Source: Escherichia phage vB_VIPECOOM01. Taken from it: a DNA stretch of 64,000 bases. The position numbers were made by a program, and so were the translations under genes. The notes beneath the pieces were generated by a model that had not been told where the DNA came from, ran no database searches, and saw only the letters and a program-made list of their open reading frames with translations. Location of the stretch: sequence record OQ721909. One strand, written 5' to 3'. Position 1 is the stretch's first letter; every line of letters starts with the position of its first letter. Shown here in pieces: positions 4,479-7,875 of this stretch.

Positions 4479-5042
4479 TTATTTATCTAGTTTAGTTATT
4501 ATAGCTTCTGCGGCAGCTTTTAGCTTAGATGCGGTGTTAATACGATTTTTAATTTCAGTATACGCATCGCCAAGAACATCAAGGCTATCAGAATAAACAC
4601 TTACACTATTGCGTTCGCTATTTGAAATAGAACCTTTAGTTTTACGATCAAAATCGGTGTACACGTCTTGAAGATCACGGGCTGCCTTCTTTGCATCATC
4701 CAATGCGTCAAGAGCTTTATTCAAAGCATTAACGTATTTTTTAGTGTCGAACATATTCTTAGAAATTTTAACAGGTGCGCGTTCAGGAGTAGCTAATGCA
4801 GATTTAGGAACCTGAGCGCCAGATGCCAATTTCTTAGAAATTTTGAAAAACGCTTTATTGAATTTATTTTCTTGACTCATCGTAAAAGAACTATTATCGA
4901 TGTTGTACATTTCAATAGCTTTAGCTTTCCACTTAAGAAAATCGCCGCGGTCTTTTGGGTCCAAGTGGAAGAATACTTTAGTAAGATCTGCTTCAGATGG
5001 TAATTTTGCTGCTTCGGTTAAAAATTCGGCATAGGTTTTCAT
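4479..5042 (-). CDS. Internal-protein-like protein with N-terminal capsid-targeting sequence
   Basis: N-terminus MKTYAEFLTEAA matches the T4 internal protein CTS pattern (MKTYQEFIAE) plus an L-x-E prohead protease site; lysine-rich body; bracketed by terminators. Confidence 0.6.
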   Translation of the reverse strand: MKTYAEFLTEAAKLPSEADLTKVFFHLDPKDRGDFLKWKAKAIEMYNIDNSSFTMSQENKFNKAFFKISKKLASGAQVPKSALATPERAPVKISKNMFDTKKYVNALNKALDALDDAKKAARDLQDVYTDFDRKTKGSISNSERNSVSVYSDSLDVLGDAYTEIKNRINTASKLKAAAEAIITKLDK

Positions 5043-5131: not shown

Positions 5132-5160
5132 TAAAAAGCCCCGACCGAAAGGTCGGGGCT
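5132..5160 (-). terminator. Rho-independent terminator
   Basis: Stem agccccgacc/ggtcggggct with GAAA loop, followed by UUUUU on the minus strand. Confidence 0.75.
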
Positions 5161-5167
5161 AAGAATG

Positions 5168-5641
5168 TTATTTGATTTGTTTAGCAGACCAAATGCGGTC
5201 TTTAATAATTTTTTGGATGTCTTCAACATACTCTAGGTCATGAGCATGTGGGTTATCTTTGAAACTATAAGCACGAGCTAGTTTTTGGCCTTCAGTTTTG
5301 ATTACTAAAAGCTCTTTAAGGATAGCTTCATATTTAGCGATAATTCCTTTAACAATATTTTTTTCTTGTGCAACTTTAGGATCTGCTTTAGGAGCAGGTT
5401 TACCCGAAGCCTTTGCAAAAGCAGCGCCAGTAGCAACTAAACTTTTCCAGGCCATACTAACTGCATTTCCTGTAAATCCTTCTGCTTTCATGTCGCGGGC
5501 AAATTGGAATCGTGATTCGTCAGAAGCATCTTTATAGGAATATTTACCCGCTGCAATGGCTGCTTTTGCGACAGCTTGAATTTCGGTGCTAGATGCTTCA
5601 TTTAACACCGCTTCATTTAAAAATTGAGCATATGATTTCAT
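5168..5641 (-). CDS. Internal-protein-like protein with N-terminal capsid-targeting sequence
   Basis: N-terminus MKSYAQFLNEAV (CTS-like, L-N-E cleavage motif); own late promoter upstream and terminator downstream. Confidence 0.6.
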   Translation of the reverse strand: MKSYAQFLNEAVLNEASSTEIQAVAKAAIAAGKYSYKDASDESRFQFARDMKAEGFTGNAVSMAWKSLVATGAAFAKASGKPAPKADPKVAQEKNIVKGIIAKYEAILKELLVIKTEGQKLARAYSFKDNPHAHDLEYVEDIQKIIKDRIWSAKQIK

Positions 5642-5680
5642 CTTATTTCCTGTTTTAATTCGTGATTTAATATACTACTA

Positions 5681-5688
5681 TATTTATA
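5681..5688 (-). promoter_or_regulatory. T4 late promoter TATAAATA (minus strand)
   Basis: Plus tatttata at 5681-5688, about 40 nt upstream of the 5641 start. Confidence 0.6.
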
Positions 5689-5690
5689 CT

Positions 5691-5718
5691 AAAAAGCCCC
5701 AACCTTTCGGTCGGGGCT
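5691..5718 (-). terminator. Rho-independent terminator closing the tRNA/small-RNA transcription unit
   Basis: Stem agccccaacc/ggtcggggct (one G-U), loop TTTC, then UUUUU on minus strand. Confidence 0.7.
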
Positions 5719-5725
5719 AAGCCTT

Positions 5726-6030
5726 GCGGCAACCTTGTCGGGGTTCCACCTGCTAAGGCAAGTGTTTGTACGAAACGCCGGGATTCGAACCCGGTTATTA
5801 AGCAGTTGACGCTACTCAATATTTTTAAAAGGCCATATCTCGACCATATCCGAACGTTCCGTCAAAAACGCTACTCGGCTTACGGCAAAGATATTTCCTC
5901 GAATCGATAATTCGGTGCGCCGTTTCTGCTGTGATGTAAGGGGATATTAACAAATCGTAAAGATTTATTAAGACCAGTCCTTACGCAGGGAACATCAGTC
6001 CGACGACTTACCGGTAGCGACCCGGTTTCT
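5726..6030 (-). ncRNA. ORF-free structured region, candidate stable small RNA(s) co-transcribed with the tRNAs
   Basis: No ORF of 60 aa or more on either strand over about 300 bp despite dense coding elsewhere; tRNA-like T-arm CCGGG-TTCGAAT-CCCGG (5778-5794) with pairing acceptor-like strands CGGAACG/CGTTTCG (5855-5861 / 5771-5777) but no canonical D or anticodon arm; sits between tRNA operon and terminator. T4 has species 1/2 stable RNAs near its tRNAs. Confidence 0.35.
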
Positions 6031-6380
6031 TAATATTCTTTTAAAGCATCAATTTGTTCACGGCGTTTACGCCATAAATCAATTGCTTCATACGCAGATT
6101 CAGCATTTCGAATTGGACGGCATTTATATAAAGACTTATGATTTTGATATTGTGTAGATAACGGAATTTTATCTAAAAGGTCTTTACGTTCAAAATATTC
6201 GTAACCATCTAAACCAAATGAACGATTTTTGAGAAATTGCCAATGACCGTATTCGTTTTCGACATAAACATAATCCGCGTGTTGATAAAGCAAATTAATT
6301 ACACGTTCAGAAATAACAGTGTCATTGTGATTAAAATAAAATGTTAAATCATGAACTACTAAATAAACATTACCTTTCAT
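6030..6380 (-). CDS. Hypothetical protein embedded in the tRNA operon
   Basis: 116 aa, SD gaggaaaat before ATG, starts 17 nt after tRNA-Arg on same strand. Confidence 0.55.
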   Translation of the reverse strand: MKGNVYLVVHDLTFYFNHNDTVISERVINLLYQHADYVYVENEYGHWQFLKNRSFGLDGYEYFERKDLLDKIPLSTQYQNHKSLYKCRPIRNAESAYEAIDLWRKRREQIDALKEY

Positions 6381-6396
6381 ATTTTCCTCACTTAAT

Positions 6397-6472
6397 TGGT
6401 CGAGGCAGTAGGGATCGAACCTACGACCTAGGACTTAGAAGGTCCTTGCTCTTCCTTCTGAGCTATGCCCCG
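6397..6472 (-). tRNA. tRNA-Arg (anticodon TCT)
   Basis: Hand-folded cloverleaf, anticodon loop CTTCTAA, T-loop GGTTCGATCC, CCA encoded. Confidence 0.8.
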
Positions 6473-6476
6473 TAAT

Positions 6477-6552
6477 TGGGGTGACCGATGGGAGTCGAAC
6501 CCATGACTACGAGAATCACAATCTCGAGTTCTACCAACTGAACTACGGCCAC
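6477..6552 (-). tRNA. tRNA-His (anticodon GTG)
   Basis: 76 nt cloverleaf; anticodon arm CGAGA-TTGTGAT-TCTCG; closely resembles E. coli tRNA-His from memory. Confidence 0.7.
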
Positions 6553-6666
6553 ATTAATACCTACTCCAACAATCAAGATGTCTTCACACGAAATTAAGAG
6601 AAGAGTGATCAGTTCAACCCCGATAATCGCGTCAAGTAGATATTAATGTGACAATTGTCACAAATT

Positions 6667-6741
6667 TGGCGGACGTGATAGGATTCGAACCTATAACCAA
6701 TCGCTTAACAGGCGATCGCTCTGCCATTGAGCTACACATCC
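6667..6741 (-). tRNA. tRNA-Asn (anticodon GTT)
   Basis: 75 nt; anticodon loop CTGTTAA; T-arm ATAGG-TTCGAAT-CCTAT; CCA encoded. Confidence 0.7.
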
Positions 6742-6745
6742 AAAT

Positions 6746-6832
6746 TGGTGGGGAGTGATGGAGTCGAACCACCCGAGTCGCAATGACAATGGATTTACAG
6801 TCCACACCGCTACCTCTACGGGATAACTCCCC
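6746..6832 (-). tRNA. tRNA-Tyr (anticodon GTA), long variable arm
   Basis: 87 nt; anticodon loop CTGTAAA; long extra arm; CCA encoded. Confidence 0.7.
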
Positions 6833-6845
6833 TTAATTCTTAATT

Positions 6846-6920
6846 TGGTGGCCCTGGGTGGAATTGAACCACCATCTGGCGATTATGAGTCGCTTGCTTG
6901 AACCTTCCAGCTACAGGGCC
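6846..6920 (-). tRNA. tRNA with CAT anticodon, most likely Ile (lysidine type); Met not excluded
   Basis: 75 nt; anticodon arm AGCGA-CTCATAA-TCGCC resembles E. coli tRNA-Ile2 from memory; T4 tRNA-Ile also carries CAU. Confidence 0.65.
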
Positions 6921-6929
6921 AAATTTTTC

Positions 6930-7412
6930 TTATTTTATGTAATATTTATTTAAAAACTTTCTAGCTTGAGTATGGCTAACATTTATAGCGTTTGCATAAT
7001 TTTTAATAAAACCTCGTTCATCCATATTAAAATTTTCTAATATTTTTAATCGTCTAATTATCTCATCTTGGCTTAAGGTACTTGCATTATTTTTAGAAAT
7101 TTTTTCTAAAGACTGCACTGAGTGTTTTCGACCATTAAAATTAAAATTTTTAGGTTTTGGAGGAAATCTATCATTTAGTCTCGCATCTTTTGTATTTTGA
7201 TTATTAGTTGCGCAATATATGTTATTTAATGAGTATGGTCCTTTATCACCAAAACGACACATACAGTATTCATGACCCTTTCTTCCACGCTTATCATAAT
7301 TTCCCGTTGATTTCCACCAATTCAACCACTCATCAAAAGTTAAATTCCATTCAATGTTTCTACGTATAGCAGAATTCCGCTGAGAAATATATTTTGCATA
7401 ATCTTCTTTCAT
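6930..7412 (-). mobile_element. Free-standing HNH-like (His-Me finger) homing endonuclease gene inserted between tRNA genes
   Basis: 160 aa; EWNLTFDEW plus CxC and GDKGPYSLNNIYCATNNQN motif resembling degenerate phage HNH nucleases; basic C-terminal HTH-like tail; interrupts the tRNA cluster. Confidence 0.5.
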
Positions 7413-7459
7413 CGCAAATTTCTCTACTTATTGCATACACTAAGCTAAATCAGCAAAAC

Positions 7460-7549
7460 TGGCGGAGGCGATAGGATTTGAACCTATGAGTCGCCGGAGC
7501 GACTGCCGGTTTTCAAGACCGGTGCATTAAACCACTCTGCCACGCCTCC
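7460..7549 (-). tRNA. tRNA-Ser (anticodon TGA), long variable arm
   Basis: 90 nt; anticodon arm CCGGT-CTTGAAA-ACCGG; CCA encoded. Confidence 0.8.
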
Positions 7550-7551
7550 AG

Positions 7552-7625
7552 TCTCCGCGGCAGGATTTGAACCTGCGACATTCTGCTCCCAAAGCAGACG
7601 CTCTACCAAACTGAGCTACACGGAG
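7552..7625 (-). tRNA. tRNA-Pro (anticodon TGG), CCA not encoded
   Basis: Anticodon arm TCTGC-TTTGGGA-GCAGA; abuts tRNA-Ser with 2-nt spacer, as in the T4 Pro-Ser dimeric precursor. Confidence 0.8.
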
Positions 7626-7635
7626 TAAATTAAAT

Positions 7636-7709
<74 letters not shown>

Positions 7710-7714
7710 AAATT

Positions 7715-7801
7715 TGGTGCGAGAAGTGGGACTCGAACCCACAAGGAAATCATTCCGCAGCATTTTAAGTGCTGTGCCTTTACCAATTTGACCATTCTCG
7801 C
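7715..7801 (-). tRNA. tRNA-Leu (anticodon TAA), long variable arm
   Basis: 87 nt; anticodon arm CAGCA-CTTAAAA-TGCTG; CCA encoded. Confidence 0.8.
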
Positions 7802-7802
7802 G

Positions 7803-7875
7803 CTGGGAATAAAGGACTCGAACCTTTGCATCTAGCAGTCAAAGTGCTATGCCTTACCAACTTGGCTAATTCCCA
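7803..7875 (-). tRNA. tRNA-Gln (anticodon TTG), CCA not encoded
   Basis: Anticodon arm TAGCA-CTTTGAC-TGCTA; 1-nt spacer to tRNA-Leu as in the T4 Gln-Leu dimer. Confidence 0.8.

Follow-up and report, generated by a model that had tools for sequence, protein, structure and literature searches.

An ORF-free segment of a T4-like phage tRNA operon aligns with the stable RNA genes rnaD and rnaC, and rnaC is predicted to carry two complementary hairpin loops

T4-type phages produce two small stable RNAs, rnaC and rnaD, which have been known since the 1970s. Processing of rnaC by RNase P is described in the older T4 literature, and laboratory strains support the growth of T4 mutants that lack the tRNA region. 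Several other RNAs carry tRNA-like parts that serve as processing handles or protein-binding modules, namely the tRNA-like domain of tmRNA, the bacterial Y-RNA-like YrlA RNAs and the mascRNA of MALAT1; E. coli is not known to have Rsr, the protein with which YrlA associates. Kissing complexes between loops of 6–7 nt are formed by HIV TAR and TAR* and by RNA I and RNA II of ColE1.

The roles of RNAC and RNAD were called unknown in a 2010 review (PMC3014915). A 2022 omics study, in which RNAC was seen by northern blot in T4-infected cells, assigned both RNAs to the late class and likewise gave no known function for either (PMC9697503). In a 2025 evolution study, every line of a T4-like phage that had been adapted to the host ECOR34 carried the same rnaD SNP (PMC12685909). 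No function has ever been shown for either RNA (PMC3014915, PMC9697503, PMC12685909). For phage tRNA clusters more generally, T5 tRNA-Lys, which acts against PARIS, is an example of a phage tRNA that neutralises a tRNA-targeting defence (PMC11464382).

The window analysed here, a stretch of 64,000 nt from Escherichia phage vB_VIPECOOM01 (OQ721909), is DNA of a Tequatrovirus, i.e. a T4-like phage. BLAST searches with positions 5680–6060 gave a 100% identical match in Escherichia phage vB_VIPECOOM03 and matches in 760 phage records, nearly all of them from Tequatrovirus. An earlier note on this DNA had proposed that an ORF-free stretch in this segment likely encodes stable small RNAs, one or several, that are processed along with the tRNAs, or else a degenerate tRNA or tRNA-like decoy; it had suggested T4 rnaC and rnaD for comparison. 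Base-for-base alignment with these T4 genes, and with the annotations of phage RB68, supports that reading. RB68 is 97% identical across 5680–6060, with ‘rnaD, species II RNA’ and ‘rnaC’ annotated under the match, and the T4 annotation (NC_000866) places rnaD at 71053–71171 and rnaC at 70908–71046, immediately past tRNA-Arg. Since the order of the genes and the downstream terminator are shared as well, positions 5769–6033 on the minus strand almost certainly represent rnaD and rnaC, known as ‘species 2’ and ‘species 1’ among the stable RNAs of T4-type phages. Both genes are already known from their annotation in T4 and RB68. The relevant strand is the minus strand, which corrects the earlier note, and the layout on that strand is as follows.

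5914–6033 (−): rnaD (species 2 RNA), about 120 nt; 104 of 116 aligned bases are those of T4 rnaD, and it co-aligns with the ncRNA annotated in RB68.
5908–5913 (−): 6-nt spacer GAAUUA between rnaD and rnaC; the T4 and RB68 annotations leave 5–6 nt.
5769–5907 (−): rnaC (species 1 RNA), 139 nt, tRNA-like; 137 of 139 bases are those of T4 rnaC.
5719–5768 (−): structured 3′ trailer of 50 nt with three small hairpins, filling the gap from rnaC to the terminator.
5690–5718 (−): intrinsic terminator of the tRNA-rnaD-rnaC unit, with a 10-bp stem containing 7 G-C pairs, a GAAA loop and a T-run.

The rnaC gene aligns over its full length with T4 rnaC (T4s001), with equal length, two substitutions and the same neighbours, rnaD upstream and the trailer and terminator downstream. 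It is thus the same gene in another Tequatrovirus. It scores 154.9 bits with a covariance model of the family and is the sole match of that model in the window. The rnaD gene shares with T4 rnaD (T4s002) its 5′ hairpin, its terminal stem and its placement relative to rnaC, and differs in the sequence of its central hairpin. Together they are the last genes of the tRNA operon, and rnaC occupies the distal end, after rnaD and before the terminator, in the order found in T4 and RB68.

ARAGORN and Rfam place ten tRNA genes at 6397–7875 (−). The strong terminator announced by the earlier note lies where the operon ends, its hairpin at 5718–5695 (−) reading AGCCCCGACC-GAAA-GGTTGGGGCT before the T-run. 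On the other side, the region does not adjoin the tRNA genes as had been claimed: a 116-aa ORF (6030–6380, minus strand; phrog_3355, no Pfam match) separates tRNA-Arg from rnaD, and its stop codon falls on the opening bases of the latter. This ORF is present in RB68 and absent from T4, where rnaD starts one base past tRNA-Arg. A MotA-type middle promoter (TGCTTTA) at the end of the ORF was considered by reading the sequence and dropped, as no suitably spaced −10 element accompanies it. The trailer and terminator folded together give a z of −4.3; the trailer is conserved in T4 and missing in genera that have a tRNA directly after rnaC.

Downstream of the terminator, two paralogous ORFs that both belong to phrog_2280 occupy 4479–5042 and 5168–5641 (−), and a hairpin nearly identical to that of the operon terminator (AGCCCCGACC...GGTCGGGGCT) is found at 5137–5160 (−), after the first of them. 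The tRNA cluster itself is split by a 160-aa ORF at 6930–7412 (−; phrog_16521, no Pfam match), which we liken to the homing endonuclease gene segB that interrupts the tRNA cluster of T4. The 114-nt spacer between tRNA-Asn and tRNA-His, at 6553–6666 (−), is neither a tRNA nor a member of an Rfam family. The approximately 100 nt directly upstream of tRNA-His are 78–88% conserved in T4-like phages of Klebsiella, Enterobacter, Salmonella and Erwinia, and contain an 18-bp stem with 6 covarying pairs, whose 3′ strand enters the first bases of tRNA-His. This segment may act as a structured leader or represent yet another stable RNA, and a link to G-1 retention is possible.

As the earlier note had observed, the region is relatively GC-rich, with a GC content of 0.42–0.44 over 5650–6099 as against 0.29–0.36 in the flanking coding DNA. 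It was also rightly called ORF-free, in that it harbours no ORF of 60 or more residues and just three of 34–50 residues, all with TTG starts. These short frames, together with the CDSs that many deposited genomes place there, are what could be said for the idea that the region encodes small proteins, as in the GenBank ‘hypothetical protein’ records. The probability of this idea is negligible: beyond the lack of longer frames, the substitutions pair in helices and are not spaced by codon position, and three rnaC homologues (id4496, KMB17 and Melville) have stops in all six frames, on which ground coding potential was rejected.

Low-stringency BLAST extended the rnaC family beyond Tequatrovirus, to Gapriver-, Karam-, Winkler-, Kanagawa-, Moon-, Gelderland-, Marfa- and Mosugukvirus. 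The rnaC alignment comprises 38 sequences, 34 of them distinct, from at least nine Tevenvirinae genera. The minimum free energy of rnaC folded as a single sequence is −50.2 kcal/mol (z = −4.55). Across the 34 distinct homologues, 98.8% of the cells of the consensus fold are paired, compared with 36–49% when the partners are slid, and compensatory changes affect 24 of the 40 pairs; the observed values were reached in none of 500 shuffles. These comparisons support a predicted four-way junction composed of an acceptor stem, a hairpin of approximately 70 nt, a hairpin of 9–10 bp and a T arm, with the following parts.

5900–5906 (−): acceptor stem, 5′ strand (nt 2–8, CGAUUCG), pairing with 5771–5777.
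5830–5899 (−): long hairpin (nt 9–78) at the position of the D arm, from the minimum-energy fold; helices 2–5 covary.
5860–5865 (−): loop 1, UUGACG (nt 43–48), at the tip of the long hairpin; invariant except for A46G in Marfavirus.
5796–5821 (−): hairpin 2 (nt 87–112), with a 9–10-bp stem, at the position of the anticodon arm; compensatory changes in 8 of 9 pairs.
5806–5811 (−): loop 2, CGUCAA (nt 97–102), the exact reverse complement of loop 1.
5778–5794 (−): T arm, CCGGG-UUCGAAU-CCCGG (nt 114–130), unique in the window.
5771–5777 (−): acceptor stem, 3′ strand (nt 131–137, CGUUUCG), followed by U138 at the discriminator position.

The perfect tRNA-type T arm described in the earlier note, CCGGGTTCGAATCCCGG, is found once in the window, at 5778–5794 (−); 100 shuffles gave an expectation of none, also when 2 mismatches were allowed. 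The middle pair of its stem covaries (G-C, U-A or A-U). In the acceptor stem, pair A4-U135 is replaced by G-C in 22 sequences, and in PM2 the two U.U mismatches of the T4 stem become U-A pairs, giving a fully paired 7-bp stem. Helices 1 and 8, the 7-bp acceptor stem and the 5-bp T stem with its 7-nt loop, are 99–100% paired and both covary. The acceptor-like strands with one G-U pair that had been noticed earlier do exist in T4-type sequences, but they are not a conserved acceptor stem: the pairing of rnaC nt 46–53 with nt 131–138 shows no covariation, is disrupted in other lineages and was rejected. This alternative acceptor probably accounts for the 95-nt ‘tRNA-Met’ and ‘tRNA-Phe’ calls inside rnaC.

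With canonical tRNAs (RF00005), rnaC shares the 7-bp acceptor stem, the 5-bp T stem, a 7-nt loop of the GUUCGAAUC type, the discriminator base, the location in a tRNA operon and, in two lineages, an encoded CCA. Unlike them, it is 139 nt long and has no D arm or 7-nt anticodon loop. ARAGORN reported nothing over rnaC and RF00005 gave no match there up to E = 10. The covariance-model searches that the earlier note had called for, with tRNA and Rfam models, yielded no family over the region at the gathering threshold or at E ≤ 10, and the best sub-threshold Rfam match over rnaC, to tRNA-Sec, scores a meaningless 16.6 bits against a cut-off of 47. The absence of canonical D and anticodon arms had been correctly seen; in their place are the 70-nt hairpin and the hairpin with a 6-nt loop. 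We conclude that rnaC is derived from a tRNA whose acceptor stem, stacked on the T stem, was kept and whose D and anticodon arms were replaced by hairpins of approximately 70 nt and of 9–10 bp. In Winklervirus-type homologues the sequence of the T loop is not conserved (UGCAUCC or UGCAUGC). Thus, the feature that is kept seems to be the T stem rather than the full tRNA tertiary structure, and full tRNA mimicry is doubtful.

The missing D and anticodon arms and the lack of any tRNA call by ARAGORN or the Rfam model might also be expected of a decaying, functionless pseudo-tRNA. This is extremely improbable for rnaC, which is at least 95% identical in approximately 680 Tequatrovirus records while the neighbouring rnaD drops to 76%, and whose 24 pairs with compensatory substitutions across nine genera denote helices that a pseudogene would not keep. 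The ‘degenerate tRNA’ of the earlier note therefore holds as to tRNA-like origin and fails as to decay, because the acceptor stem and the T arm are under selection.

A further reading takes rnaC for a chargeable tRNA-like RNA, aminoacylated after CCA addition and acting in the manner of tmRNA, be it on the ribosome or in some other reaction of aminoacyl transfer. Its 7-bp acceptor stem, T arm and U at the discriminator position would suit such an RNA, and the PM2 and Marfavirus homologues encode U-CCA after the acceptor stem. In PM2, moreover, the sequence reads G.U at the third acceptor pair; in tRNAs, the identity element for alanine lies at position 3:70. Nevertheless, we regard charging as very unlikely: other homologues have A-U or G-C at the third acceptor pair, T4-type phages encode UACAA and their annotated mature rnaC ends in ...GUA rather than CCA, the T loop of some lineages departs from the canonical form, and ARAGORN found no tmRNA or tag reading frame.

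Like tmRNA, YrlA and mascRNA, rnaC joins an acceptor/T minihelix to a non-tRNA body, a design that is likely to serve release by tRNA-processing enzymes. In contrast with these RNAs, its region has no Rfam match to any of them: no tmRNA family was detected, and the only match of YrlA (RF02553) in 5600–6700 falls on genuine tRNAs at 6447–6509, with 17.7 bits versus a threshold of 69.

The two hairpins that are foreign to tRNAs evolve in a distinctive manner. The long hairpin, which includes GAUAUGG twice (the direct repeat GATATGG-TCGA-GATATGG of the earlier note, present at 5833–5850 when the minus strand is read), occurs in two types, A and B, with unrelated stem sequences and a shared length and apical loop. 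An A/U-rich linker of 8 nt separates it from hairpin 2. The stems of both hairpins turn over completely while their 6-nt loops stay invariant. The six pairs that can be drawn between the loops are 99.5% paired across the 34 sequences. In the Marfavirus clade both loops are altered together, to UUGGCG and CGCCAA (A46G/U99C). PM2 retains only the core GACG/CGUC, 4 of the 6 pairs. In Enterobacter phage KMB17 (locus L006, 1128–1266), nearly perfect reverse complementarity links the apical hairpin to hairpin 2 across 19 nt; the complementarity of the loops extends to 19 bp, and the predicted minimum-energy fold switches to a long-range helix.

These patterns make it an even bet that the two loops form a kissing contact, either within one rnaC molecule or between two. 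The putative kissing helix has one independent covariation event and strong conservation in its favour, which is suggestive, not proven, and an intramolecular kiss would need the 25-bp arm to be folded back on itself. As in TAR-TAR* and RNA I/RNA II, the hairpins of rnaC have fully complementary 6-nt loops, and the 19-nt near-complements of KMB17 resemble an antisense pair; unlike in those systems, both hairpins belong to one RNA. We found no description of this contact in the searchable literature, to which the structural papers of the 1970s do not belong.

The fold of rnaD is distinct from that of rnaC, whose covariance model does not recognise it. It consists of a 5′ hairpin, a 7-bp stem between nt 27–33 and the 3′ end, short helices and a central hairpin; 97% of its pairs form, versus 33–50% in slid controls, and 6 pairs covary. 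One of its parts is listed here.

6010–6026 (−): rnaD 5′ hairpin ACCGG-GUCGCUA-CCGGU, with a 5-bp stem and a 7-nt loop, identified as an inverted repeat and in the consensus fold.

The stem of this hairpin is invariant but for the closing pair, where 2 sequences have G-C in place of A-U. The central hairpin (window positions 5940–5990) is, by contrast with the conserved flanks, hypervariable, with at least three unrelated versions (loci L012, L014, L173 and L217), as if it were swapped like a cassette between them. BLAST finds rnaD only in Tequatrovirus and in Gaprivervirus (phage VR7). In the loop of the 5′ hairpin, CGCUAC (6014–6019) is complementary to GUAGCG, present in rnaC at 5869–5874 and 5810–5815. 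GUAGCG occurs twice in T4-type rnaC, inside the repeated GAGUAGCGU, and its complementarity to the rnaD loop may be a coincidence.

Pattern scans of IMG/VR turned up 17 genuine rnaC loci and 18 different rnaD sequences, each from a lineage already known, and a metagenome pattern scan gave 120 loci with 3 real homologues and no new lineage, the rest being chance matches in GC-rich soil contigs. BLAST searches from PM2, the most divergent rnaC member, reached no further genera, and BLAST found no homologue in E. coli genomes or plasmids. A covariance-model search of the whole window revealed neither a second rnaC-like gene nor a relation between rnaD and rnaC. Outside Tequatrovirus, rnaC is mostly unannotated and usually lies between two tRNA genes, e.g. 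in the order Trp-rnaC-Gly.

These genetic environments bear on the possibility that rnaC and rnaD are purely cis-acting, as structured punctuation that would guide or protect processing of the precursor or stabilise its 3′ end, with the excised RNAs as by-products. Constant co-transcription with tRNAs and the tRNA-like processing handle of rnaC are consistent with such a role, as is the position of both genes in Tequatrovirus, at the 3′ end of the operon and adjoining the terminator. However, rnaC lies in the middle of the cluster and not at its 3′ end in Karam-, Gelderland- and Winklervirus, and invariant complementary loops and a fixed arm length despite stem turnover represent more constraint than a spacer needs. 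In T4-infected cells, the RNAs also accumulate as stable species (PMC9697503). We therefore consider a purely cis-acting role improbable.

Our preferred reading is that both RNAs are released and act in trans. The acceptor/T minihelix would be the handle by which RNase P, at the 5′ end, and 3′ trimming free rnaC from the polycistronic precursor, and the presumed RNase P cut in the 5908–5913 spacer would make the 5′ end of rnaC and thereby the 3′ end of rnaD too. Excision by way of this handle is probable, with RNase P cleavage inferred from the minihelix and from the older T4 literature. The two replaced arms would be the working part, their loops UUGACG and CGUCAA kissing. The mature RNAs might then act in a host-dependent manner, as a non-decoding tRNA mimic or as a structured RNA with a protein of the host or the phage as its ligand. 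Both release by tRNA enzymes and the trans role are proposed on the basis of general knowledge of tRNA processing, of the ECOR34 result and of the growth of tRNA-region deletion mutants. Taken as a whole, this account of rnaD and rnaC as T4 stable RNAs, with excision by a tRNA handle, kissing arms and action in trans, is in our judgement likely.

Because laboratory strains support T4 mutants without the tRNA region, we consider a role in host-specific conflict the likeliest. The rnaD SNP selected on ECOR34, the cassette-like rnaD hairpin and the lack of homologues in E. coli genomes and plasmids count in the same direction. The ‘decoy’ of the earlier note is treated here as a hypothesis, and a decoy or anti-defence role of rnaC and rnaD is possible, if somewhat doubtful. 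Like T5 tRNA-Lys, they are products of a phage tRNA cluster with a proposed role in host-phage conflict; tRNAs of the T5 type are functional decoding molecules that replace cleaved host tRNAs, whereas rnaC cannot decode. More speculatively, and with rather low probability, rnaC might be a tRNA-derived scaffold locked by kissing into a closed or dimeric particle which, with rnaD, serves as a decoy or as a trigger sensed by a defence system.

Both genes are missed by Rfam, by ARAGORN and by many GenBank annotations, or are labelled as hypothetical proteins. Parts of rnaC are annotated as a 95-nt ‘tRNA-Met’ or ‘tRNA-Phe’ in deposited genomes (loci L005, 1246–1340, and L166, 1173–1268), and only a few records name rnaC and rnaD correctly, namely T4, RB68, RB3, RB10, Aplg8 and ATK47. 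The element is textbook T4 biology, and its rediscovery is ordinary. The present analysis contributes a covariance model ready for use, corrects the acceptor stem, shows how widely rnaC is spread in the tRNA clusters of Tevenvirinae and puts forward the testable kissing-loop hypothesis. The covariance model of rnaC would mend the mis-annotation in T4-like genomes. The family-wide structure, with its true acceptor stem, complementary loops and variable rnaD hairpin, gives concrete mutants and assays for the old question of function and, if true, the kissing particle with rnaD would be the first function for RNAs that have been without one for about 50 years.
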